A stretch of DNA of 12,407 bases from a virus (lineage: Duplodnaviria > Heunggongvirae > Uroviricota > Caudoviricetes). The notes below the pieces were generated by a model. That model saw only the letters and a list, made by a program, of their open reading frames with translations. It was not told the origin of the DNA and searched no databases. The stretch is from positions 1 through 12,407 of the IMG/VR virus record IMGVR_UViG_2541047881_000002. One strand, 5' to 3'. The position numbers and the translations under genes were made by a program. This document shows positions 1 to 12,407 of this stretch, piece after piece; within the stretch, counting starts at the first letter, position 1, and each line of letters starts with the position of its first letter.

Positions 1-3000
1 ATGCTGAAACGTCTGTTAAGTAAACTGACGGGAAACCGTCAGCAGATAGAACATCACCTAAAAAATCAGTACCAGGTTGAGGAAAACGGACTTAGCTTTC
101 CGCTATCGCTGGTTGATGATTCGCAGCTTTGGGCACTGGCATCCTGGCTAGAACAACTGGCTGAAGAAGACTATCTGATATCACTTACAGACCGGTGGTT
201 GTTGAGTTGGGACGCACTGTATCGCCTGCTGGAGGATGAGGAACATGCCAGCAGCCTGCCTCTTATCGGTGTACCTGACGTACTGCCTTTACGCGCAAGC
301 CTGAGTTCACGAGGAGCATTAAGCGATAGCGATTTTCGCGTCTGGATTGCTGAATGGGCTACGCTTCCAGCCCGCAAGCCGATCCGTTTCAGTCGTACCG
401 GTGCCATTTTAACCCATGAAAATCAGCAATACCTGTTATCGCGTGAAAACTGGGCACTCTTACAGGCAACAGAACAACTCAGTGCACAGAAAAATCAGAC
501 TCCTGGTGAAACCACTAACCAGTTGGGATGGGCCGCTATCCGCAAATGTGCGAAGCAAGCAGCCGCAAAATTTGATGATTATTTAGAAAAAACGCATGTC
601 GTCAAACCAACTTCATTGTCATTACGTCTGCGTAAAGCAACGGTTGCCGATACTGCTGTTATCGAAATTGAGCCCCATTTCGAGGACCAGCCTGCTAACT
701 GGCTAGGCAGTTTTGACAAAAACTCGCAGGTTCACGATAGCTACCGCATCCCTGGAGAGAATGGCGAACTCAGCCATGTCATTATCCCTCCCGAAGTGAA
801 AGAAGTCCTGAATTCAATACACTCGATTCCAGGCCGTCGAGTGGCCGGAAGCGAAGCGCTTTCCTTTGTTCGCAATCCTTATACCTTCCTGGGTGAAGAT
901 GCCGCCAGTGTTATTGCCCCTGAAGAACATGAACAGGCACTGTTTGATGCCAGGATTTTCTTTCATCATTTCAGGTTGATACCGCAACTGAATGCGGAAA
1001 ATAAGATCGCAGAAGTTACGCTGGTACTTGAGCCTGTTTCACCTGTTCCCCAGCCAGAAATCACTTTTGGGTTCTCAGCCCCCCGGGAGCTGGATAAATT
1101 CATACAGCAACTCGGTATTAGCGTCGCTGCACAGATGCCTGCCGGTTCATGGCAAGGTTACGAGCTGGAATTAAGTCAGTTCACTGAACAGCAGTGGCAC
1201 GATTGCCAGGCACTTCTAACTCGCTGGCAGCAAGAAATAGAAGGAAAAGAATTTAGCGATGTGCTGGATATTGCGAAGTATGGCGATCGCGTGATTGGCA
1301 TTGGTGAATTTGAAAAAATCTCCTCTCCCTGGCTGACCAAAGCGCAGAGTGAAAACTGGCTTCCAGATGACATCGATTTCTCCGCGTTTTCAGTCGAAAC
1401 ACTGTCTGGCTGGCAACCTGAAAACCTTCACCATTTCGATGAACTGCAGGAGAGAATTACTCAGGCAGAAGCTGTAGGTGAAACGCATATCACCGCACCA
1501 TGGAATGACAGCCAATTACCGTTGGATGCTGCTAAAACCTTCAGTAAGAACTGGGAAAAACAGCAAAGCACTGCAAATGAATCTCAAGGCAACGTTGCAG
1601 ATAAAACGGCCCGAGCCGTACTCAAAATTGAGCAGAATATTGAAGAAACGGCCTACATCAAACAGCGCCGCAATTCACTCCTCAATGCGCGTCATGCCGA
1701 GCCTGAAATTCCTCTGAGCCTTAAAGAGCATATCCGACTCAAAGACCATCAACGTGAAGGCGTAGCCTGGCTCCAGCAACTCTTCCTTCGTTCACCTGAG
1801 GAAACCGCAGGTTGCCTGCTGGCGGATGATATGGGGCTTGGGAAAACGCTGCAAATTCTGAGCTTCCTGGTATGGTTCATTGAAAAATTCCCGCAAGAAC
1901 CGCCAAGTCTCATTGTTGCTCCTGTCTCTCTTTTAGATAACTGGGAACGTGAACTGGACAATTTCTTCTATACCGCAGGAATACCGGTATTGAAATTGTA
2001 TGGCGAGACCATTAAAGCGGTGAAATATCCCAAACAGGCTATCCCTGCTCATCTGCAATCTCAGGGGATCAAAAACCTGCTTAAACCTGGCTGGCAGGGT
2101 GAGGCGAAAATCATCCTGACAACCTACGAAACGCTTCGCGACCAGGAGTTTTCTCTGGCACGCCAGCCGTGGTCCATTATGGTGTGCGACGAGGCACAAA
2201 AAATAAAAAACCCAGCTGCGTTAATCACACATGCGGCCAACGCGGTACAAGCCAGGTTTAAAGTGGCATGTACAGGAACACCTGTCGAAAACACACTTGT
2301 CGACCTGTGGAGCTTATTTGATTTTGCCCAGCCAGGATTGTTAGGGGCACTAAATGAATTTGGTAAACACTATGTTCGCCCCATCGAGAACGAAGATGGC
2401 CGCGATACGGAACGGTTGGAAAGCCTGCGAGCGCTGATAGAACCTCAGACTTTACGCCGAACCAAAGAAGAGGTTGCGCGTGATTTACCTCAGAAAATTG
2501 AAGTGGAAAGCTGCAAGCAATTGACGTTGTCTGGCGTGCAAAAACAGCTCTACCTTTCGTCCGTTGCAAATTGGCAACAACAGCAAGCACTGAGCGAAGG
2601 GATGCAGCAGGCCGGAACCGGTATGTTAGGTTTGTTACACCGACTGAAACTCATCTGTGCACACCCTGCAGTAGTTAATCCAGAACCACGTTTTCGTGAT
2701 AACTCACCCAAGCTTAACTGGCTGCTGAAAATACTCGCAGAACTAAAACACACCACGAAAGATAAGGTCATTATTTTTACGGAGCTTCGAGATTTACAGC
2801 GCGAACTTCAACATGCGATCCACCAAAAGTTTGGTTTCCGCCCTGTCATTATCAATGGTGATACCAGCACTAAAAGTCAAAGTCAAAACAGCCGCCAGCG
2901 CCTGATTGATGATTTTCAGGCTCAGCCTGGGTTTGGGGTGATTATTCTCTCTACGGTTGCCGTCGGATTCGGCGTTAACGTCCAGAAAGCCAATCATGTT

Positions 3001-3243
3001 ATTCATTTCACTCGCTGCTGGAACCCAGCCAAAGAAGATCAGGCAACAGACCGGGCGTACCGAATTGGGCAAACTAAAGATGTGTATGTCTATTACCCGA
3101 CGGTGAAGGACACTGAAATCACCACATTTGAAGAAACACTGGATGACCTTCTGCAGCGTCGACGTGCATTGGCCAGAGATATGCTCTGCGCTACTCCCGA
3201 TTTGAGTGGCGCGGATTTTGAGGCCATTTTGAAGGGGGCTTAA
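1..3243 (+). CDS. SNF2-family (Swi2/Snf2-type) helicase/ATPase, 1080 aa, with an uncharacterised ~560-aa N-terminal region
   Basis: Single uninterrupted ORF from ATG at 1 to TAA at 3241-3243. Translation shows SNF2 motifs: motif I LLADDMGLGKT (nt ~1819-1848), motif II MVCDEAQKIKN (DEAQ box), motif III TGTPVENTLVDLWSLFDF, and C-terminal motif VI QATDRAYRIGQ. Residues 1 to ~560 carry no motif I can recognise. Confidence 0.85.
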   Translation: MLKRLLSKLTGNRQQIEHHLKNQYQVEENGLSFPLSLVDDSQLWALASWLEQLAEEDYLISLTDRWLLSWDALYRLLEDEEHASSLPLIGVPDVLPLRASLSSRGALSDSDFRVWIAEWATLPARKPIRFSRTGAILTHENQQYLLSRENWALLQATEQLSAQKNQTPGETTNQLGWAAIRKCAKQAAAKFDDYLEKTHVVKPTSLSLRLRKATVADTAVIEIEPHFEDQPANWLGSFDKNSQVHDSYRIPGENGELSHVIIPPEVKEVLNSIHSIPGRRVAGSEALSFVRNPYTFLGEDAASVIAPEEHEQALFDARIFFHHFRLIPQLNAENKIAEVTLVLEPVSPVPQPEITFGFSAPRELDKFIQQLGISVAAQMPAGSWQGYELELSQFTEQQWHDCQALLTRWQQEIEGKEFSDVLDIAKYGDRVIGIGEFEKISSPWLTKAQSENWLPDDIDFSAFSVETLSGWQPENLHHFDELQERITQAEAVGETHITAPWNDSQLPLDAAKTFSKNWEKQQSTANESQGNVADKTARAVLKIEQNIEETAYIKQRRNSLLNARHAEPEIPLSLKEHIRLKDHQREGVAWLQQLFLRSPEETAGCLLADDMGLGKTLQILSFLVWFIEKFPQEPPSLIVAPVSLLDNWERELDNFFYTAGIPVLKLYGETIKAVKYPKQAIPAHLQSQGIKNLLKPGWQGEAKIILTTYETLRDQEFSLARQPWSIMVCDEAQKIKNPAALITHAANAVQARFKVACTGTPVENTLVDLWSLFDFAQPGLLGALNEFGKHYVRPIENEDGRDTERLESLRALIEPQTLRRTKEEVARDLPQKIEVESCKQLTLSGVQKQLYLSSVANWQQQQALSEGMQQAGTGMLGLLHRLKLICAHPAVVNPEPRFRDNSPKLNWLLKILAELKHTTKDKVIIFTELRDLQRELQHAIHQKFGFRPVIINGDTSTKSQSQNSRQRLIDDFQAQPGFGVIILSTVAVGFGVNVQKANHVIHFTRCWNPAKEDQATDRAYRIGQTKDVYVYYPTVKDTEITTFEETLDDLLQRRRALARDMLCATPDLSGADFEAILKGA

Positions 3244-3279
3244 CCGATACGAGTGGCAATACCACCAGCAGTCGAACCG

Positions 3280-3409
3280 ATTCATTTGAAACGACACGTA
3301 GCCGCGATGGATCTGTATCACCTACCGACAGCTTGGGAAAGTCCCGAATTACAAATGTTCAGGGGAATACCATAACCTGCCGGACTTATTCGTTTGGAAC
3401 GACGTGTTA
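3280..3409. repeat. Pair of imperfect 22-nt direct repeats (3280-3301 and 3388-3409, 16/22 identical, differences mostly transitions), each flanked by short inverted repeats
   Basis: ATTCATTTGAAACGACACGTAG versus ATTCGTTTGGAACGACGTGTTA. The second copy is enclosed by CGGACT (3381-3386) and AGTCCG (3416-3421); the first by GTCG and CGAC. Lies in the 520-bp non-coding gap between two convergent genes. Confidence 0.4.
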
Positions 3410-3764
3410 CGACTTAGTCCGAGGGAAACATGCCAGGTAAAAACCGAATATCCATCCTCAGCTTTAGCAAATACCTCCCCATACTCGCTACTTCATATTG
3501 AGAAGATATTGTGTTGCTCATATTGCTTTGAGCATGCTCTTCAGCGTTTACATGTGGATCGTACTACCCTGATGATCCGATGCGTTGTTTACTGCTTTTA
3601 ACCTCTATATACAAAACCCCCACTAAATATTTTTCTGAGACTAACGGTAAATCATTATCTATCATGTAGTTACGATAGAATTGCATGTATCTGGCACAAA
3701 ATAAGGTTTCATTACGTTCTATCTTGTTAAATATAAAGGGATCATTTCCTCCCAAAGTCACAAT

Positions 3765-4478
3765 CTACAGGAACGGTTTCAATAACATCGGATCAATGAT
3801 CCCCTCTGGAAAATCGTAAAGATGCTGACGCGCTGTCGTCTCCTTCAGTCCCGCTGCTTTAGCAAAATCGCTGACGGAGTAGCCTTCAGGCCACCAGCTC
3901 TGATAGTAAATATCAAAATACTGCCCCCACTCTGCGCTCATCGGGCGTCGTGATAGCTGTCGGGCAGCAGATTTCTGAGTCAGTTGATATTTCACAATAT
4001 ATTCACCAACGCTAAGACCATTCTCGACTTTTTCGCGCTGAAACTGGCGACGATGGTAAACCCAGAACAGCGCCCTAAGCGATGCGCCACCAGCTTTATG
4101 CAGCGCATTCCAGGCTCTGCGGTGCGGTATCCTGTAGCGTTGCGCGTATTCGGTTTGTGTAATGCCATGCAGAATCGCTTCACGACGATAATTTTGCTTG
4201 TGCCAGGCCCAGTCAATCTTCCAGCGGTCGCATCGCTCGCTGTAGTCCTGAGCTCTTTTCTGGCGGGCAACAGGCAACTTCAGAAAGTTTTCAAAGAGTG
4301 TATCCAGCGAGCACGCAACCGGATGGATATGCTGCGTTTGCAGACGTATCTCATTGGGCGTAAGTGGGCGATATTCGAGCCCCGTTAGACGTTCCAGCCG
4401 CCATTCATGATAGTTTTTTCGACGACGTCTATTCCCGGCATACTTCAAACGATACAGTGCCTGTTCAGCGTATGACAT
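3765..4478 (-). CDS. YagL/YfjJ-like island protein, 237 aa; C-terminal W/Y-rich domain paralogous to the C-terminus of the adjacent Rep-like protein
   Basis: ATG at 4476-4478 preceded by a strong SD (AAGGAG, 7-nt spacer); stop TAG at 3765-3767. C-terminus (SAEWGQYFDIYYQSWWPEGYSVSDFAKAAGLKETTARQHLYDFPEGI) aligns with the 315-aa protein (SPHWLRHFDRYYDNYWPCGVSVAQYCNWHDLNPSTARRYLCDYPPAV). A 14-bp overlap with the upstream gene suggests an operon. Family assignment is from recall, not a search. Confidence 0.65.
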   Translation of the reverse strand: MSYAEQALYRLKYAGNRRRRKNYHEWRLERLTGLEYRPLTPNEIRLQTQHIHPVACSLDTLFENFLKLPVARQKRAQDYSERCDRWKIDWAWHKQNYRREAILHGITQTEYAQRYRIPHRRAWNALHKAGGASLRALFWVYHRRQFQREKVENGLSVGEYIVKYQLTQKSAARQLSRRPMSAEWGQYFDIYYQSWWPEGYSVSDFAKAAGLKETTARQHLYDFPEGIIDPMLLKPFL

Positions 4479-5412
4479 ATTGAATCTCCTTTTGAAGCCA
4501 ACCCCTCAGGATGCCAGGTGAGATAACTGCTGGTGGATAATCGCAGAGATAACGCCGGGCTGTTGAAGGATTTAAATCGTGCCAATTACAGTACTGAGCG
4601 ACGCTGACTCCGCAGGGCCAGTAATTGTCGTAATAGCGATCGAAATGCCGTAGCCAGTGAGGAGATAGTTGAGGTTTTTCAGCTGCTTTTCCGCGCTGAT
4701 ACAGCTTCAGTAAACGCTGAATGCTGCGAATCTGGCTATTTGTTTCATAATCCAGAGAGTCAATCTCTGCGGGTTCATTATCACCGAGAAATAACGGGTC
4801 AAGCTTACCTGGCAGCGGACAGTAACGTTCGGCAGGTGGCTGGCATTGCTTGAGTTTGGCTGGAGTCCTGGGTTTAGGCTTTTGTTGCTTCAGTACTTTG
4901 TAGTGCTTGCGTCCGTACAACGGAATATGTTTTGCGATTCCGGTCTTAGTGGCGTATTTAGCGAAATAGCTCAACCTTAACAGAAGCTCCCCCAGGGTCT
5001 GCGAATCGCGCTTATGGACCATGTAGTATCCGTTTTTGGGAAACCAAACTTTCCCGTTAGTTGCCGAACTCCAGGTCTTCTCCACCAGCCCATTCAATAC
5101 CTTTGGTGTACGTATGTGGTTCCCGTCCACCATGAGCACACAGTGATAGTGCTGCGCTGTCGCTTTGTCATGCTCACGAACCCAGAATATATCGAAAAAA
5201 GACTTTGGATAACGAGCACGTAATACCTGGGCTAATTGCTGGCAGAAGTCCGAAATAACCTGATTGTCATCTGTATAGCTCTTGAGATGTAAATCATAGC
5301 GAACAGCCAGAAAACGCGAAGTCCGCAGATAGGTTTGATTCACCGTATCAAAAAGGGCTTCCATGATCCTGGAATCATACTCTCCCTCTGCATGAAGTAT
5401 CGGCCAGAACAC
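4465..5412 (-). CDS. YagK/YfjJ (inovirus Gp2-like) rolling-circle Rep-like protein with HUH motif, apparently 5'-truncated at the IS junction (possible pseudogene)
   Basis: The ORF has no ATG start: the first candidate is GTG at 5410-5412 with no SD, and the frame stays open for 32 more codons up to the IS end at 5509. Contains AQHYHCVLMVDG (HUH-like) and LSYFAKYATK (Y-x-x-K-Y, resembling the phiX174 gpA active-site motif YVAKYVNK as I recall it). Confidence 0.6.
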   Translation of the reverse strand: MFWPILHAEGEYDSRIMEALFDTVNQTYLRTSRFLAVRYDLHLKSYTDDNQVISDFCQQLAQVLRARYPKSFFDIFWVREHDKATAQHYHCVLMVDGNHIRTPKVLNGLVEKTWSSATNGKVWFPKNGYYMVHKRDSQTLGELLLRLSYFAKYATKTGIAKHIPLYGRKHYKVLKQQKPKPRTPAKLKQCQPPAERYCPLPGKLDPLFLGDNEPAEIDSLDYETNSQIRSIQRLLKLYQRGKAAEKPQLSPHWLRHFDRYYDNYWPCGVSVAQYCNWHDLNPSTARRYLCDYPPAVISPGILRGWLQKEIQYVIR

Positions 5413-5550
5413 TTCGTCATACAGAAAGTATCCTTGAGCATTAATCCACTGAGCTGCTTGCGAGGCCGGTATATTATTAATTACCGATGGTTTCTCGAAC
5501 TGATGATCTGAACCGCCCCGGGTTTCCTGGAGAGTGTTTTATCTGTGAAC

Positions 5551-6441
5551 TCAGGCTGCCAGATCATCGTTTCCGATGGAAGCATAATAAGCTTTTTCTG
5601 CTTCTGCCGGAGGAGTATGGCCCAGCCTTTCCAGCAATCGTCGATTGTTATACCAGTCCACCCACGTGAGTGTGGCCAGTTCCACTTCTGCACGGTTTTT
5701 CCAGCTCTTACGGTGTATTACCTCCGCTTTGTAAAGACCATTGATGCTCTCCGCCATCGCGTTGTCATACGAGTCGCCTGTACTTCCTGTTGATGCCAGT
5801 AATCCGGCTTCCTTAAGCCGCTGTGTGTAGGCCAGCGATACATACTGAGAACCTTTATCACTGTGATGGACCGTGCCGGACGGTCGACGGGCCCATAACG
5901 CCTGCTCCAGTGCATCCAGCACGAATGTCGTTTCCATGGACGATGAGACCCGCCACCCCACGATGTATCCGGCAAACACATCAATGATGAACGCCACATA
6001 GACGAAGCCCCGCCATGTGCTGACGTAAGTAAAATCAGCCACCCACAGCTGGTCAGGTCGTTCTGCCACGAACTGACGGTTTACGCGGTCGCCTGCGGCA
6101 ACGGCTTTCCGGCTGATGGTCGTACGGACCTTTTTACCCCGGAGAACACCGGCAAGTCCCATAACCGCCATGAGGCGCGCCACTGTACATCTGGCCACCC
6201 TGATTCCTTCCCGTAACAACTGACGCCAGACTTTACGCACACCGTACACCTGATGATTTTCATCGTATACGCGCTGTATCTCTCTCTTCAGCCAGTCATC
6301 GTGCTGCGCACGGGCACTGCGTTTATCCGGATGATGTCGCTGTTGCTGACAATGGTAATACGTTGACGGGGCAATATGCAGTTCGCTGCATACCGGTCCG
6401 ACCCCGTACTGCTCACGCAGCTTATCCAGCAGTGGCATCAT
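5551..6441 (-). CDS. IS3-family transposase OrfB (DDE catalytic core), 296 aa
   Basis: Translation carries the IS3-type DDE triad context (WVADFTYV ... HHSDKGSQY ... [11 protein letters not shown]). Begins ATGATG, overlapping the orfA stop in the -1 frame. Confidence 0.9.
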
Positions 6442-6449
6442 TTTTTCCA
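6438..6449 (-). other. Candidate programmed -1 ribosomal frameshift site at the orfA/orfB junction (CTGGAAAAAATGATG on the minus strand)
   Basis: A run of six A (6441-6446) immediately precedes the orfA stop TGA (6438-6440), with orfB in the -1 frame. IS3-family elements make OrfAB by -1 frameshifting; a canonical A-AAA-AAG heptamer is not present here, so the exact site is uncertain. Confidence 0.4.
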
Positions 6450-6764
6450 GAGGCGGTCGAACTCCGCCTTCGCAAAATAAGCGGAAGCCTGGCGAAGGAT
6501 ATCGTTACTGCGGCGCAGTTCACGATTTTCACGTTCCAGCTCTTTCAGACGCTGACGTTCAGCGCTGGTGAGCCCACCATCACCGCCCCCGGTATCCCGC
6601 TCATGCTGGCGAACCCAGACACGCAGAGTCTCCGGCGTACAGCCAATCTTTGGGGCAATGGAACAAATTGCCGCCCACTGTGAGTCATATTCATCCTGAC
6701 TTTCCAGAACCATACGGACTGCCCGTTGACGGACTTCGGGGGAAAAACGAGTATTTTTAGTCAT
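6438..6764 (-). CDS. IS3-family transposase OrfA (HTH and leucine-zipper-like region), 108 aa
   Basis: ATG at 6762-6764 (minus strand), 54 bp inside the left IR; ends ...RLWKK with TGA overlapping the orfB ATG. Coiled-coil-like [17 protein letters not shown] segment is typical of IS3 OrfA. Confidence 0.9.
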
Positions 6765-6847
6765 CCTGTTTACCTCTTTCTCAGGAAGTTTAGTCTCCAG
6801 GATTCCCGGGGCGGTTCACCTTGCTTCCGGCTGGTACCGTCCTTTTT

Positions 6848-6936
6848 ACAAAACAGAGAAGAGCATCACCGGACGACGGGCTCATAACCCAATCCATCCG
6901 GGCGGCAGTCACCGCAGGTGTTCTTCTCTGTTTTGT
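6848..6936. repeat. Perfect 15-bp inverted repeat (ACAAAACAGAGAAGA at 6848-6862, TCTTCTCTGTTTTGT at 6922-6936) enclosing a 59-bp GC-rich spacer
   Basis: Read directly; arms extend imperfectly (CATCACCGG / CACCTGCGG). Spacer contains GGGCTCATAACCC, an anticodon-stem-loop-like hairpin. Lies between the IS left end (6818) and the yfdP-like start (6985). Confidence 0.7.
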
Positions 6937-6984
6937 GGAGAAACTAACCGACCTTGCAGGGTCGATATGATGAGGAGCAGCAAA

Positions 6985-7347
6985 ATGGCTAGCGAACGCA
7001 GTACTGATGTGCAGGCATTTATCGGGGAGCTGGACGGCGGCGTATTTGAAACCAAAATCGGCGCAGTTCTCAGTGAAGTCGCTTCCGGTGTGATGAACAC
7101 GAAAACCAAAGGTAAGGTCTCGCTCAACCTGGAAATCGAACCGTTTGATGAGAACCGAGTGAAAATCAAACACAAACTCTCATATGTTCGCCCGACTAAC
7201 CGCGGGAAAATTTCCGAAGAAGACACCACCGAAACGCCGATGTATGTCAATCGCGGTGGTCGCCTGACTATTCTGCAGGAAGACCAGGGACAGTTACTGA
7301 CTCTTGCCGGTGAACCTGACGGAAAACTCCGCGCAGCAGGTCGTTAA
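6985..7347 (+). CDS. yfdP: YfdP-like prophage protein, 120 aa
   Basis: ATG at 6985 preceded by GAGGAG (6973-6978, 6-nt spacer); the track ORF start at 6967 lacks an SD. The 120-aa length matches K-12 CPS-53 YfdP as I recall it, and it is first in a five-gene series matching the yfdP-T lengths. Confidence 0.7.
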   Translation: MASERSTDVQAFIGELDGGVFETKIGAVLSEVASGVMNTKTKGKVSLNLEIEPFDENRVKIKHKLSYVRPTNRGKISEEDTTETPMYVNRGGRLTILQEDQGQLLTLAGEPDGKLRAAGR

Positions 7348-7412
7348 TATCGTTTTTAATTAACTGATTATTTATCTCATCACTGAATATCTTTATATAG
7401 TGAGGACTTATT

Positions 7413-8237
7413 ATGTCTCAGAACTTAGACGCAACCGCAATTAATCAAATCCATGCCCTTATTTCTGCTCAGGGTGTTAATGAAATTATCAGTAAGATTG
7501 GTGCCGATGCTGTGGCATTGCCTGAGAATTTCCGCATTCATGATCTGGAAAAATTTAATTTAAATCGCTTCCGTTTCCGTGGTGCGCTTTCCACTGCCAG
7601 CATCGATGACTTTACCCGTTATTCTAAAGATCTTGCAGATGAAGGCACCCGCTGCTTTATCGATGCTGATAATATGCGTGCCGTCAGTGTGCTTAACCTG
7701 GGTACTATTGATGAACCAGGTCACGCAGATAACACCGCCACACTCAAACTGAAAAAGACAGCACCGTTCTCTGCTCTGTTGTCTGTTAACGGCGAGCGTA
7801 ACTCCCAGAAGTCACTGGCAGAATGGATTGAAGACTGGGCCGACTATCTTGTGGGCTTTGATGCTAATGGTGACGCTATTCAGGCAACAAAAACGGCTGC
7901 GGCTGTCCGTAAAATCACGATTGAAGCAAACCAGACCGCTGATTTTGAAGATAATGACTTCAGCGGCAAACGCTCCCTGATGGAGTCTGTCGAAGCGAAG
8001 ACCAAAGACATTATGCCAGTGGCATTTGAATTTAAATGCGTTCCGTTTGAAGGTCTGAAAGAACGTCCGTTTAAATTACGCCTCAGTATTATCACTGGCG
8101 ATCGTCCTGTACTGGTTCTACGCATTATTCAGCTGGAGGCGGTGCAGGAAGAAATGGCTAACGAATTTCGTGATCTGCTTGTTGAGAAATTCAAGGACAG
8201 CAAAGTAGAAACCTTTATTGGTACTTTCACCGCCTGA
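7413..8237 (+). CDS. yfdQ: YfdQ-like prophage protein (DUF2303-type), 274 aa
   Basis: ATG at 7413 with SD GAGGA (7402-7406); stop TGA at 8235-8237. Length and position in the series match CPS-53 YfdQ (274 aa) from recall. Confidence 0.8.
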
Positions 8238-8249
8238 TTTCATTACTGC

Positions 8250-8271
8250 AAATGCCCCTGCGGGGGCATTT
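8250..8271 (+). terminator. GC-rich perfect hairpin (AAATGCCCC-tgcg-GGGGCATTT) 13 nt after the yfdQ-like stop; candidate partial intrinsic terminator or RNA-stability element
   Basis: 9-bp perfect stem with a 4-nt loop, read directly. Only a 3-T tail follows, so termination is probably partial. Confidence 0.4.
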
Positions 8272-8364
8272 ATGGAAACGTAATTTACTCAATAATCGCC
8301 GGATGGTGAGGGATTCTTTTTACCAGAATTCAGCGCGGTGCAGCGCATATACGTGGAGAACAAA

Positions 8365-8901
8365 ATGTCATTTATTAAAACTTTTTCCGGGAAGCATTTT
8401 TATTATGACAGGATAAATAAAGACGACATCGATATTAACGATATCGCGGTTTCCCTTTCAAATATCTGTCGCTTTGCCGGTCATCTTTCGCACTTCTACA
8501 GCGTCGCCCAACATGCGGTTCTTTGCAGCCAGCTGGTGCCGCAGGAATTTGCTTTTGAAGCGTTAATGCATGATGCAACAGAAGCGTATTGCCAGGACAT
8601 TCCCGCACCACTGAAACGCCTTCTTCCTGACTATAAACAAATGGAAGAAAAAATAGACGCCGTAATCCGTGAGAAATACGGGTTACCCCCAGTTATGAGT
8701 ACGCCCGTGAAATATGCCGATCTCATCATGCTGGCAACCGAACGCCGCGATCTCGGGCTTGATGATGGCTCTTTCTGGCCTGTACTGGAAGGTATCCCGG
8801 CAACAGAGATGTTCAACGTGATTCCACTGGCTCCGGGCCATGCCTACGGGATGTTTATGGAACGCTTTAACGAGTTATCGGAGTTACGCAAATGCGCATG
8901 A
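8365..8901 (+). CDS. yfdR: HD-domain metal-dependent phosphohydrolase, YfdR-like, 178 aa
   Basis: ATG at 8365 with SD GGAGAA 8 nt upstream; the track start at 8338 is in-frame but has no SD. HD-domain signature: H...HD...D pattern in YSVAQHAVLC ... LMHDATEAY. Stop TGA at 8899-8901 overlaps the next start. Confidence 0.8.
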   Translation: MSFIKTFSGKHFYYDRINKDDIDINDIAVSLSNICRFAGHLSHFYSVAQHAVLCSQLVPQEFAFEALMHDATEAYCQDIPAPLKRLLPDYKQMEEKIDAVIREKYGLPPVMSTPVKYADLIMLATERRDLGLDDGSFWPVLEGIPATEMFNVIPLAPGHAYGMFMERFNELSELRKCA

Positions 8902-9254
8902 ATGTTTTCGAAATGGAAGGGTTTCTTCGTGGGAGATGTGTACCGCGAGATCTGAAAGTAAATGAAACAGATGCTGAATACCTAGTGCGTAAATTCGATG
9001 CGCTTGAAGCTAAATGTGCAGCACAGGAAAACAAAGTAATACCAGTGTCAACTGAACTGCCACCAGCAAATGAAAGTGTTTTGTTATTCGATGCTAACGG
9101 AGAAGGCTGGCTAATTGGCTGGCGTTCTCTCTGGTACACCTGGGGACAAAAAGAAACCGGAGAATGGCAGTGGACATTTCAGGTCGGGGACCTTGAAAAC
9201 GTCAATATCACTCACTGGGCAGTAATGCCAAAAGCACCGGAGGCTGGAGCATAA
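8892..9254 (+). CDS. yfdS: YfdS-like prophage protein, 120 aa, Trp-rich C-terminus
   Basis: ATG at 8892 (alternative ATG at 8898 overlapping the upstream TGA as ATGA); length matches YfdS (120 aa) from recall. Confidence 0.7.
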   Translation: MRMNVFEMEGFLRGRCVPRDLKVNETDAEYLVRKFDALEAKCAAQENKVIPVSTELPPANESVLLFDANGEGWLIGWRSLWYTWGQKETGEWQWTFQVGDLENVNITHWAVMPKAPEAGA

Positions 9255-9559
9255 TGACCACTTTTACCGACAAAGAACTGATTAAAGAAATTAAAGAGCG
9301 TATCAGCAGCCTTGACGTGCGAGACGATATTGAGCGCCGTGCTTATGAAATCGCACTCCTATCTCTGGAAGTAGAACCAGATGAACGCGAAGCTTATGAA
9401 TTATTCATGGAAAAGCGTTTCGGTGACTTAGTAGATCGTCGGAGAGCAAAAAACGGCGATAACGAATACATGGCATGGGATATGACTCTCGGTTGGATCG
9501 TCTGGCAGCAACGAGCTGGTATCCATTTTTCAACAATGTCACAGCAAGAGGTGAAATAA
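9254..9559 (+). CDS. yfdT: YfdT-like prophage protein, 101 aa
   Basis: ATG at 9254 overlaps the upstream TAA (TAATG); its own stop TAA at 9557-9559 overlaps the next ATG (TAATG). Length matches YfdT (101 aa) from recall. Confidence 0.7.
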   Translation: MTTFTDKELIKEIKERISSLDVRDDIERRAYEIALLSLEVEPDEREAYELFMEKRFGDLVDRRRAKNGDNEYMAWDMTLGWIVWQQRAGIHFSTMSQQEVK

Positions 9560-9909
9560 TGGAGCCATACAGCCTCACACTCGATGAGGCCTGTCATTTT
9601 CTCAAGATATCCAGACCGACTGCCATTAACTGGATACGCACAGGGCGTCTTCAGGCAACACGCAAAGATCCCACTAAGAATAAATCTCCTTACCTCACAA
9701 CACGACAAGCCTGCATTGCGGCTCTTCAGTCTCCGCTGCATACTGTCCAGGTGAGCGCGGGTGATGGCATAACAGAGGAAAGAAAATGTCACTCTTCCGC
9801 AGAGGTGAAATATGGTACGCCAGTTTCACATTGCCGAACGGTAAAAGATTTAAACAGTCTCTTGGAACAAAGGACAAAAGGCAGGCGACAGAACTCCATG
9901 ACAAGCTAA
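9559..9909 (+). CDS. xis: Excisionase / AlpA-type HTH DNA-binding protein (Xis-like); 3' extent uncertain
   Basis: N-terminal [35 protein letters not shown] matches the excisionase-family HTH pattern (LTLDEA..FL.+SR.T+..WI+.G+L); SD AGAGGTGA upstream. The ORF runs to 9909, overlapping the integrase start by 124 nt in another frame. Confidence 0.65.
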
Positions 9910-10949
9910 AGGCTGAAGCATGGCGGGTCAGCAAACTTGGTGAAATACCTGATATAACGTTCGAGGAAGCGTGTGTCAGGTGGCTTGAAGAGAAAGCACA
10001 TAAAAAATCACTGGACGATGACAAAAGCCGGATCGGATTCTGGCTTCAACATTTCGCAGGAATGCAACTAAGAGACATTACTGAATCAAAAATTTATTCA
10101 GCAATGCAGAAAATGACGAACCGGCGTCATGAGGAAAACTGGAAACTCAGGGCAGAAGCATGCAGAAAAAAAGGGAAACCTGTTCCAGAATACACGCCAA
10201 AACCAGCGTCCGTTGCAACGAAGGCTACGCATCTTTCATTTATAAAGGCCCTACTAAGAGCCGCAGAGCGTGAATGGAAAATGCTGGATAAGGCACCAAT
10301 TATTAAAGTGCCCCAACCAAAGAATAAACGGATCCGCTGGCTGGAGCCCCATGAAGCACAAAGGCTGATTGATGAATGTCCGGAGCCATTAAAGTCTGTT
10401 GTTGAATTTGCACTGGCAACAGGCCTAAGACGCTCGAACATCATCAACCTTGAATGGCAACAAATAGATATGCAGCGCCGGGTGGCATGGATAAACCCGG
10501 AAGAGAGTAAATCAAACCGCGCAATTGGCGTTGCGCTGAATGATACTGCATGTCGCGTATTGAAAAAACAAATCGGGAATCATCACCGTTGGGTATTTGT
10601 GTACAAGGAAAGCTGTACCAAACCAGACGGAACGAAAGCGCCAACAGTCAGGAAGATGCGGTATGACGCAAACACAGCCTGGAAAGCGGCGCTGAGACGG
10701 GCTGGTATTGATGATTTCAGATTTCACGACTTGAGACACACCTGGGCAAGTTGGCTGGTTCAAGCCGGAGTCCCGTTGTCAGTGTTACAGGAAATGGGAG
10801 GCTGGGAGTCTATCGAAATGGTTCGTCGATATGCTCACCTTGCACCTAATCACCTTACCGAACACGCACGGCAAATAGACTCGATCCTGAACCCATCGGT
10901 CCCAAATTTGTCCCAGTCAAAAAATAAGGAAGGTACTAATGATGTGTAA
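9786..10949 (+). CDS. int: Phage-type tyrosine site-specific integrase (lambdoid / Rac IntR-like), 387 aa
   Basis: ATG at 9786 with SD GAGGA (7-nt spacer). Catalytic signature present: [10 protein letters not shown] (Arg), HDLRHTWAS (H-x-x-R), VRRYAHL (Tyr). Stop TAA at 10947-10949, 14 bp from the tRNA 3' end. Confidence 0.93.
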
Positions 10950-10990
10950 CTTATTGATTTAAATGGTGCCGATAATAGGAGTCGAACCTA
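10950..10990. other. Putative attL core of the integrated element, overlapping the 3' end of thrW
   Basis: The integrase stop is 14 bp from the tRNA 3' end and convergent with it, the usual geometry for tRNA-targeting tyrosine integrases. Exact core boundaries cannot be set without the matching att copy. Confidence 0.4.
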
Positions 10991-11039
10991 CGACCTTCGC
11001 ATTACGAATGCGCTGCTCTACCAACTGAGCTATATCGGC
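10964..11039 (-). tRNA. thrW: tRNA-Thr, anticodon CGU, 76 nt with encoded CCA
   Basis: Reverse complement of 10964-11039 reads GCCGATATAGCTCAGTTGGTAGAGCAGCGCATTCGTAATGCGAAGGTCGTAGGTTCGACTCCTATTATCGGCACCA: 7-bp acceptor stem, D-arm GCTC/GAGC, anticodon loop TTCGTAA (CGT), T-loop TTCGACT, 3' CCA. Position next to proA matches the E. coli proA-thrW arrangement. Confidence 0.93.
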
Positions 11040-11079
11040 CCTGAAAGGACATGTTCACGAACGTGAATCACGGTGGACA

Positions 11080-11108
11080 AGGTTAAAACTAACCGGGCGA
11101 TGCGTCAA
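11080..11108 (-). promoter_or_regulatory. Candidate sigma70 promoter for thrW (-35 TTGACG at 11103-11108, 17-bp spacer, -10 TAACCT at 11080-11085, minus strand)
   Basis: Hexamers read on the minus strand upstream of the tRNA 5' end (11039). The -10 is weak, so the call is tentative. Confidence 0.3.
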
Positions 11109-11153
11109 TGGCCTTGTGAATCAAATGGCTACTTTTGCATCACCCGATTTTAT

Positions 11154-12407
11154 TTACGCACGAATGGTGTAATCACCAATGCCGATCCACTTGTAAGTGG
11201 TCAGTGCTTCCAGCCCCATTGGGCCACGCGCGTGGAGTTTTTGTGTGCTTACCGCCACTTCCGCACCCAGTCCAAACTGGCCGCCGTCGGTAAAACGCGT
11301 AGAGGCGTTAACGTAAACAGCGGAAGAATCCACTTCGTTAACAAAACGCTGGGCGTTGCGCATATCGCGGGTCAGGATCGCATCGGAGTGTTGTGTGCCG
11401 TGTTCACGAATATGGGCGATGGCATCGTCAAGATCGCTGACGATTTTGACGTTCAAATCTAATGACAGAAACTCATCGTCATACTCTTCCGCTTTAACCG
11501 CCACCACCTTCGCGGGGCCTGTCTGCAACTGCGCCAGCGCAGCTGCATCTGCGTGTAATGTCACGCCGCTTTCCGCCATTTGTTTGCTTAATGCGGGCAG
11601 GAAGCTATCTGCTATGTTTTTATTTACCAGCAACGTTTCAACCGTATTACATGTGCTCGGACGCTGGGTTTTCGCGTTGACGATTACTTTCAGGGCTTCA
11701 GCGATCTCTGCACTTTCATCAACGTAAATATGGCATACGCCTATACCACCAGTGATCACCGGGATCGTCGACTGTTCACGGCACAGTTTATGCAAACCAG
11801 CGCCACCACGCGGGATCAGCATGTCGATGTATTTATCCATACGCAGCATTTCACTGACCAGCGCACGGTCAGGATTATCAATCGCCTGCACGGCACCCGC
11901 CGGTAAGCCACAGGATTTCAGGGCGTCCTGAATCACCGCCACCGTTGCCGCGTTAGTGCGACAGGTTTCTTTGCCACCACGCAGGATCACCGCATTACCG
12001 GTTTTCAGGCACAGCGAAGCGACATCAACCGTCACGTTCGGGCGCGCTTCATAAATCACGCCAATAACCCCCAGCGGTACGCGACGACGCTCAAGACGCA
12101 GGCCGCTGTCCAGTACGCCGCCATCGATTACCTGCCCCACCGGATCGGCGAGGTTACACACCTGGCGTACATCGTCGGCAATGCCTTTCAGCCGTGCGGG
12201 CGTCAGTGCCAGACGGTCAAGCATCGCTTCGCTAAGGCCATTGGCTCGCGCGTCAGCAACATCCTGGGCGTTAGCGTTGAGGATGATTTCGCTTTGTGCT
12301 TCCAGTTCATCGGCGATTTTTTCCAGCACGCGATTTTTTTCGCGGCTGGAGAGTTGCGCTAATTTATACGAGGCTTGCTTCGCGGCAATGCCCATTTGTT
12401 CCAGCAT
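11154..12407 (-). CDS. proA: Gamma-glutamyl phosphate reductase (glutamate-5-semialdehyde dehydrogenase), complete 417 aa
   Basis: ORF from ATG at 12405-12407 to TAA at 11154-11156; translation [30 protein letters not shown]... matches E. coli ProA as I recall it, with the expected thrW gene immediately downstream. Confidence 0.97.

Follow-up and report, generated by a model that had tools for sequence, protein, structure and literature searches.

A putative single-tyrosine HUH Rep endonuclease and its paralogous partner in the conserved core of tRNA-integrating defence islands of Enterobacterales

Background

Whether two overlapping genes beside an anti-phage system form a replication or mobilisation module, and of what kind of element, is the question raised by the stretch of DNA analysed here, a window of 12,407 nucleotides (nt) corresponding to positions 1 to 12,407 of the IMG/VR virus record IMGVR_UViG_2541047881_000002. 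The pair lies on the minus strand and encodes a larger protein (hereafter Rep) and a smaller one of 237 amino acids (aa), the partner. An earlier note, made from the sequence alone, had read the pair as a rolling-circle nickase of the HUH (His-hydrophobic-His) superfamily I with a paralogous DNA-binding partner, belonging to a CP4-like integrative element. In our analysis, the larger gene very probably encodes a nuclease of the HUH Rep family and is accompanied by a paralogue of its own C-terminal region. We propose that the two constitute the Rep-plus-partner module in the conserved core of tRNA-integrating defence islands of Enterobacterales, with Rep acting as a single-tyrosine HUH endonuclease.

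Genes of the YagK/YfjJ type occur widely in the islands of enterobacteria, the Escherichia coli K-12 cryptic prophages CP4-6 and CP4-57 among them, and both yagK and yfjJ have been listed among the uncharacterised genes of that strain (PMC11551758). The Pfam model PF11726 (YagK_YfjJ_C) has been used as a Rep model for Microviridae and Inoviridae (10.1101/555375). The gene studied here is annotated in RefSeq, where it is labelled 'YagK/YfjJ domain-containing' or 'inovirus-type Gp2 protein', and the family is known and poorly studied. What is added here is the conservation of the motifs across the family, the correction to a single tyrosine, the nature of the partner, the four-gene core with its flanking DNA and the truncation of the window copy by an insertion sequence (IS).

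Results

The larger protein and its catalytic motifs

The two minus-strand open reading frames (ORFs) described in the earlier note, 4465-5412 (315 aa) and 3765-4478 (237 aa), are present and overlap by 14 nt. The 315-aa protein is, however, not the native product. It is the portion that follows the first in-frame GTG, and the frame stays open upstream to position 5508, at the IS boundary. The intact rep of E. coli E24377A (WP_001037131) encodes 355 aa, co-linear with and otherwise nearly identical to the window protein, and begins with MNKLEKYR followed by DHQFEK. Residue numbers given below are those of the 347 codons that remain (Table 1).

Profile searches, which had been suggested as a check, placed the larger protein above the cut-offs of PF11726 (E value 3.5e-16; 60.0 bits against 25.8) and of PF23343, REP_ORF2-G2P (5.5e-7; 30.2 bits against 27.8), and matches to both families are also precomputed for its homologues. 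The motifs HYHCVLMV and YFAKYATK, described previously as lying about 60 residues apart, are separated by 59. His120-Tyr121-His122, Arg111-Glu112, Tyr181, Lys184 and Lys188 are invariant in 23 homologues of 37-75% identity. A profile search over 1.84 billion representatives returned 1171 relatives at E<=0.001, most of which are single-domain proteins of ~190 aa, and conservation was read from an alignment of the top 150 representatives, mutually <50% identical (151 aligned sequences). R-E, H-Y-H and S-Y-x-x-K-x3-K are kept in ~98-99% of these 150 distant relatives; the H, Y and H of the HUH motif each occur in 147 of the 151 sequences, and the Arg and Glu of WVRE in 148 and 147, respectively. 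Glu112 is a plausible candidate for the third metal ligand, a role presumed by analogy with the Rep of adeno-associated virus (AAV).

The assignment to superfamily I had rested on two tyrosines four residues apart in YFAKYATK, compared with YVAKYVNK of phiX174 gpA. The gpA translation does contain FYVAKYVNKK (together with HFHAV), and both tyrosines are indeed present in the window protein. In 20 of 22 close homologues, however, the second one, Tyr185, has given way to C, R, Q, K, N or L, and only two retain it (75% and 69% identity); among the 150 representatives, N, V, K and A are the commonest residues here. Without conservation of this tyrosine, a phiX-like pair, and with it a place in 'superfamily I', is unsupported, although the identification as an HUH Rep stands. 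The alignments give a family signature of a single conserved Tyr in a YxxK motif, not a phiX-type pair, and show the likeness of YFAKYATK to YVAKYVNK to be lineage-specific.

The AlphaFold model of Rep has a mean predicted local distance difference test (pLDDT) score of 79, exceeding 90 over most of residues 30-200. In this model the HUH motif lies on a beta-strand (119-128), Tyr181 stands at the C-terminal end of the next long helix (169-183) and the C-terminal helices span residues 283-299, 303-310 and 314-317. Structure prediction had also been put forward as a check, and a Foldseek comparison with viral models gave 'Inovirus Gp2' and Microviridae replication initiators as top matches (E 1e-5 to 1e-6). 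The best match to a solved structure was ORF119 of Sulfolobus islandicus rod-shaped virus 1 (SIRV1; PDB 2X3G), and the next HUH matches were the nuclease domains of parvovirus NS1 and AAV Rep, all at 9-18% identity. The larger protein is predicted on this basis to have a Rep-like fold that resembles solved HUH nuclease domains.

A profile search of the larger protein (A1) against PDB sequences yielded nothing relevant, the best hit being a protein phosphatase 2A (PP2A) subunit at E 0.12, and neither the PADLOC defence models nor NCBIfam gave a match for Rep or partner. The C-terminal domain of Rep had a weak PHROG match to a terminase N-terminal region. From the profile scores, the conservation of the motifs and the predicted fold, we therefore take the larger protein to be an HUH Rep-type endonuclease of the YagK/YfjJ family. 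Of the findings that had been named beforehand as refuting such a reading, namely no profile or structural similarity to HUH endonucleases and unconserved motif residues, only the variability of the second tyrosine was encountered.

The partner protein

Rep carries a linker motif, of which G234, L236, D237 and F240 are nearly invariant among close homologues, and a C-terminal domain that recurs in the partner (Table 1). The shared domain, previously described as ~50 aa long, was recovered with 22 identities in 58 positions (38%; E 2e-12), and the local alignment of the two proteins scored z = 22.7 against shuffled sequence. Homologues of the partner are few and have no Pfam domain, yet each split-type locus that was examined has one after rep. 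Atlantibacter, Buttiauxella and Silvania lack a separately encoded partner, and their Rep measures 428-451 aa; the C-terminal ~190 residues of these fused Reps align with partner residues ~57-237 at 32-36% identity, LDxLF included. The idea of a nickase with a paralogous partner is thereby strengthened, and the partner is, as judged from these alignments, a paralogue of the whole C-terminal region of Rep, comprising LDxLF and three helix-turn-helix-like repeats. Its N-terminus is basic and the protein probably binds DNA. LDxLF may be a docking motif for a protein common to Rep and partner. Its interpretation as a beta-clamp-binding motif was rejected on account of its spacing, which does not fit the QL[SD]LF consensus.

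Islands carrying the pair

The pair was found in 48 of 5,426 complete E. coli genomes. In E24377A the gene order is thrW, a 285-aa protein, AlpA (PF05930), Rep, partner, zorDCBA (the full zorA1-zorB1-zorC-zorD set), a type I restriction-modification (RM) system, a UvrD-like helicase with a small ORF and a 440-aa tyrosine integrase. This island abuts yagP and paoD and thus occupies the site held by CP4-6 in K-12 (thrW to yagP). Integration at a tRNA gene and at the CP4-6 site makes the earlier label CP4-like loosely apt, but the identity between the island integrase and IntF is no more than 23%. The features of a tRNA-integrated AlpA/integrase island are all found in the intact E24377A island, not within the window.

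The order tRNA, 285-aa protein, AlpA and Rep (with or without a partner) recurs beside tRNA-Met in Pantoea, Erwinia, Buttiauxella and Silvania, and a Klebsiella locus has the same four genes, no tRNA gene being detected in the stretch that was fetched. In several genera, whose proteins are 35-55% identical, the four-gene module keeps its order and its place on the tRNA side. The cargo, by contrast, varies: Zorya I with type I RM, type I RM and then the integrase (12-kb contig), EcoRII RM, or an acetyltransferase with arsenic-resistance genes. The far end, where read, is formed by the distal 440-aa integrase. As the core order is constant and the cargo differs, the pair is part of a backbone conserved throughout a family of integrative islands with mainly defence genes as cargo.

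Two observations concern the cargo. An Atlantibacter zorD that is 89% identical to that of the window lies a few genes downstream of a fused-type Rep, though the Reps are only ~38% identical, and Zorya therefore travels with the island backbone across genera. In E24377A, a 1010-aa UvrD-family helicase and a 272-aa ORF have the type I RM system on one side and the integrase on the other; they could represent a further defence system, or a helicase usable by a rolling-circle Rep.

Conserved non-coding DNA around the module

Downstream of the partner stop, a conserved non-coding block ends with the consensus GTAAACAACGCA-NN-GGATCAT, beyond which a relative whose cargo differs shows no further similarity. 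A 12-mer of this element is identical in the Pantoea and Erwinia loci, the proteins of which are ~50% identical, and in locus L034. A 65-aa ORF at 3564-3761 (minus strand) was considered as a gene and rejected, being interrupted in L034, L008 and L010. On the other side of the module, intact islands have a related tandem motif, TGAAACAA-N2-TGAAAyA, between the alpA terminator and the rep start and in the same orientation; this region is deleted from the window. The TGAAACAA repeats, which fall in the region of the rep promoter, are about one helical turn apart, and the alpA-rep spacer of intact islands includes GTGAAACAACGTGAAATAC. The likeness to the downstream element is an AAACAAC motif upstream of rep in the same orientation. 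When the sites were folded, the alpA terminator was the only clear structure. These conserved sites are candidate leads for binding or nicking by Rep or the partner.

GATC sites were also counted downstream of the partner gene: they are markedly clustered in Pantoea, where TGATCA occurs five times, and E. coli has only 4 sites in 520 nt against 3.1 per kb over the window. Just after the zorD stop there is a 41-nt imperfect direct repeat (3255-3295 and 3363-3403; 73% identity, 108-nt spacing) with the sequence GG(C/G)AATACCA...TTCATTTGAAACGAC, the copies of which end in TTTGAAACGAC and TTTGGAACGAC, faintly like the AAACAAC-type motifs.

Homologues on small plasmids

Homologues of 25-32% identity are found on small plasmids. 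On the Psychrobacter plasmid pA41H1 (2,626 bp), typed as non-mobilizable, the homologue is the only ORF >64 aa, which argues that the family can serve as plasmid replication initiator. Three other plasmids of 3.7-5.7 kb have the homologue as sole Rep candidate, together with a serine resolvase. The same pairing is seen in CP4-6 of K-12 as yagK-yagL, a segment that may be an integrated small plasmid module. Three Psychrobacter plasmids (L020, L024, L025) have a conserved non-coding block, ATGT(C/A)ACAGTT(A/G)(C/T)CATGCCTTT, upstream of the Gp2-type gene; this is a candidate origin for that plasmid group and was not found in the window.

The window copy and the insertion sequence

The window is an E. 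coli chromosomal segment adjoining proA and the tRNA-Thr(CGT) gene (10964-11039). The zorD ORF matches NCBIfam NF041790 with 1822.7 bits against a cut-off of 1500 and is separated from the partner gene by a 520-nt spacer. On the upstream side of rep lies an IS3-family element, which contains an ALIL frameshift pseudoknot (6367-6483). The far flank of the IS is prophage DNA (phage match from 6819), not the remainder of the island. Among complete E. coli genomes, only in NZ_AP027818 does the match continue over the IS junction at this site; the matches listed for the others end there. NZ_AP027818 has the same IS insertion site, followed by alpA and the 285-aa gene, and its far IS flank differs from that of the window.

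The window therefore lacks alpA and the 285-aa core gene, and the integrase that it encodes is the prophage remnant's own. The IS629-like element removed the first 8 codons of rep, the promoter, alpA and the 285-aa core gene. With these lost, the window copy of the module is probably inactive.

Several further observations were made on this side of the window. The direct joining of the truncated rep to prophage DNA by the IS resembles a junction of IS-mediated deletion or rearrangement and not a simple insertion. The defence island is displaced from the tRNA by the prophage remnant inserted at tRNA-Thr, in which the excisionase ORF (9475-9909) overlaps the start of the prophage integrase (9786-10949). 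An Rfam scan of the window detected only the tRNA and the IS frameshift pseudoknot, and promoter-like sites were no more frequent than in shuffled sequence.

Table 1. Coordinates of the features discussed (positions in the window unless a locus is named)
Feature	Position	Strand	Remarks
zorD	1-3243	+	last gene of a type I Zorya anti-phage system; island cargo beside the core module
Conserved non-coding block downstream of partner stop	~3570-3764	-	core/cargo boundary; contains GTAAACAACGCATCGGATCAT
Conserved non-coding element GTAAACAACGCA-TC-GGATCAT	3572-3592	-	ends the ~200-nt block; candidate Rep/partner binding or nick site
Partner gene, 237 aa	3765-4478	-	by alignment, paralogue of the Rep C-terminal region; 14-nt overlap with rep ORF
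Partner helix-turn-helix-like tandem repeats	R1 4089-4223; R2 3939-4088; R3 3768-3938	-
Partner LDxLF motif	4293-4310	-	residues 58-62; aligned with the Rep linker motif
5'-truncated rep gene (YagK/YfjJ / inovirus-Gp2 family HUH protein)	4465-5508	-	347 of 355 codons and the stop remain
W/Y-rich three-helix (helix-turn-helix-like) C-terminal domain of Rep	4495-4668	-	common to the partner
G-x-L-D-x-L-F motif	4789-4809	-	low-confidence (disordered) Rep linker; LDxLF also in the partner
Motif III YFAKYATK	4945-4968	-	Tyr181 candidate nucleophile; 59 residues after HUH
HUH motif HYHCVLMV	5128-5151	-	His120-Tyr121-His122 in 347-residue numbering; His128/His130 in the intact protein
Arg111-Glu112 (WVRE)	5173-5178	-	Glu 8 residues before the HUH motif
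IS3-family (IS629/IS1203-like) element, 1.3 kb	5510-6818	-	transposase ORFs; both ends read
CPS-53/SfIV-like prophage remnant	6819-10949		yfdP/Q/R-like genes, DUF551, excisionase, 387-aa integrase; at the tRNA-Thr gene
Related motif site in intact island	L001 16234-16354
zorD copies compared with that of the window	L005 13071-16310; L006 4108-7347
UvrD-family helicase and 272-aa ORF, E24377A island	L007 4245-8092
yagK-yagL of K-12 CP4-6	L018 4323-5919
repM and Gp2-type gene	L024 437-2592; L026 407-2459		Psychrobacter plasmids

Discussion

Proposed mechanism

In an intact island, the distal tyrosine integrase, with AlpA as excision activator, would excise the island as a circle. The helix-turn-helix-like C-terminal domain of Rep would then bind a site in the conserved non-coding DNA flanking the operon. 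With a metal ion held by the His-x-His motif, probably with Glu112 as third ligand, Tyr181 would nick one strand and become covalently linked to the 5' phosphate, leaving a free 3'-OH to prime rolling-circle synthesis by host enzymes, and by this route the excised island would escape loss or single-stranded copies would be produced for transfer. The 237-aa partner, which has no nuclease, would occupy the same DNA sites or the same host factor and so modulate Rep, in loose analogy to phiX174 A* and filamentous-phage gpX, the C-terminal versions of their Reps. We infer the steps of excision and replication as well as the modulating role of the partner, and rate as about even the chances that the excised island is replicated in rolling-circle mode by means of this module.

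A number of results weigh against this proposal. Neither a nick site nor an origin was identified, and single-strand folding of both strands gave no significant hairpin at the candidate sites (z -0.6 to -1.9). No extrachromosomal or circular form of the island was present among the contigs found. A comparison of non-coding k-mers from six homologue plasmids revealed no universal motif, the block of the three Psychrobacter plasmids being the only one, and none common with the island sites. Two Psychrobacter plasmids, pA46P3 and pA52P1, carry the Gp2-type gene directly after a Rep_3-type repM, so that the HUH protein is not always the sole initiator; these plasmids could be composite replicons, or mobilisation could be the role of the HUH protein. 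A tblastn search of 50,697 phage records gave no match and therefore no evidence for a recent phage origin, and the searchable literature yielded no experimental or functional study of any member of the family.

Alternative explanations

The placing of the homologue beside a canonical Rep_3 initiator on pA46P3 and pA52P1 would leave it free for another role, and it is conceivable that Rep is a relaxase-like nickase which makes an oriT-like nick on the excised island, whose strand is then piloted through a helper conjugative apparatus (an integrative mobilisable element), or that single-stranded circles are packaged by a helper filamentous phage. All of the evidence for the HUH domain applies equally here, as the chemistry is the same, the family takes its name from an inovirus replication protein, and the 'non-mobilizable' typing of pA46P3 and pA52P1 reflects only that no known relaxase was recognised. 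Relaxases related to rolling-circle replicases (MOBT) are treated as an accepted class (10.64898/2026.01.13.699239). We nevertheless regard a relaxase-like role, although it is the main rival, as unlikely. One 2.6-kb plasmid, typed as non-mobilizable, has a homologue as its only ORF of any size, the Pfam scan found no relaxase family, and the core module has no gene for a coupling protein or mobilisation accessory. In classical HUH relaxases the tyrosine comes ahead of the His-rich motif, whereas here HUH precedes Tyr as in Rep proteins.

The pair could also be what decay has left of a small rolling-circle plasmid or a filamentous prophage that had integrated, with no present function in the island, represented in the window by a pseudogene and an orphan paralogue. 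For the disrupted copy in the window, truncated by the IS and stripped of its promoter and neighbours, functionless status is likely. The pairing of small-plasmid homologues with a serine resolvase, as in yagK-yagL, and the restriction of the pair to so small a set of E. coli genomes would both suit a remnant. As an account of the islands in general we consider decay distinctly unlikely, given that the four-gene module is intact, in the same order and tRNA-side position across genera despite the change of cargo, that every residue of the catalytic motifs is invariant and that the non-coding blocks on its flanks have been conserved as well. In combination, these features indicate that the intact islands hold a working module under purifying selection. 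Given less weight still, and in our view highly improbable, is the explanation that Rep and partner are mainly sequence-specific DNA-binding regulators of cargo or excision genes in which the HUH domain is kept for DNA recognition. Both proteins have helix-turn-helix-like repeats, and the rep promoter region contains the tandem TGAAACAA repeat, whose spacing of roughly one helical turn is what operator sites typically show. Autoregulation is, however, compatible with a replicating Rep and does not exclude it, and the near-complete conservation of the two His, Tyr, Glu and Lys in >150 distant relatives is hard to explain without catalysis.

A more far-reaching version of the rolling-circle proposal, which we offer as very unlikely speculation, is that the module, with a (G/T)AAACAAC(G) site on either side in the same orientation, powers a class of HUH-driven mobile defence islands not described so far. 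Rep would nick at these sites after excision by AlpA and the integrase and spin off single-stranded copies, which would maintain the circle or leave the cell through a helper, either a conjugative system or a filamentous phage. New defence cargo could also be swapped in at the downstream site, which coincides with the core/cargo boundary.

Comparison with known systems

The closest named relatives of Rep are YagK (CP4-6) and YfjJ (CP4-57) of K-12, which belong to the same PF11726 family, are 26-28% identical over the HUH domain and align at HYH and Y-x-T-K. They too reside in islands associated with tRNA or tmRNA genes and beside defence cargo, yfjJ standing just before abpAB and rnlAB with alpA nearby. 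However, YagK and YfjJ are single-domain proteins of 208 aa, while the 355-aa island Rep has in addition a linker, a helix-turn-helix-like domain and a separately encoded paralogue, and the neighbours differ, being yfjI (DUF3987) in CP4-57 and the resolvase-like yagL in CP4-6.

The Reps of inoviruses and plectroviruses (PF23343) and the Microviridae initiators, such as phiX174 gpA, have the HUH-then-Tyr order of the island Rep, and phiX A*, a C-terminal product that accompanies gpA, offers a parallel to Rep and partner. A* arises from an internal in-frame start, whereas the partner is a separate paralogous gene. Unlike these phages, the island is a double-stranded integrative element of ~12-25 kb with a tyrosine integrase and without virion genes. 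SIRV1 ORF119 is a Rep with a conserved catalytic tyrosine and a superfamily II Rep fold (PMC4187194). It serves, like parvovirus NS1 and AAV Rep, a different kind of replicon (a linear archaeal virus and eukaryotic single-stranded DNA viruses, respectively), and the island Rep has no helicase domain.

Among mobile defence islands, the Pseudomonas islands I23, I44 and I55 combine an integrase and AlpA with defence cargo, and an 'inovirus Gp2-like protein' is listed with the genes that recur in them and probably form their core, without a function being ascribed to it; transfer in that case was by jumbo-phage transduction (10.1101/2024.08.29.610337). They differ from the islands described here in genus and in backbone (YqaJ, RadC), and are likened to the E. 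coli islands by description only.

Conclusions

For the window itself the message is modest, as it concerns a RefSeq-annotated gene in a copy disrupted by an insertion sequence. At the level of the family, the HUH and Tyr residues of these widespread enterobacterial proteins are strongly constrained throughout, and in one subfamily Rep, its paralogous partner, AlpA and a 285-aa protein together make up the conserved core, on the tRNA side, of islands with Zorya and RM systems as cargo. This offers a hypothesis for how defence islands may persist or spread after excision, namely by rolling-circle replication or by single-strand mobilisation.

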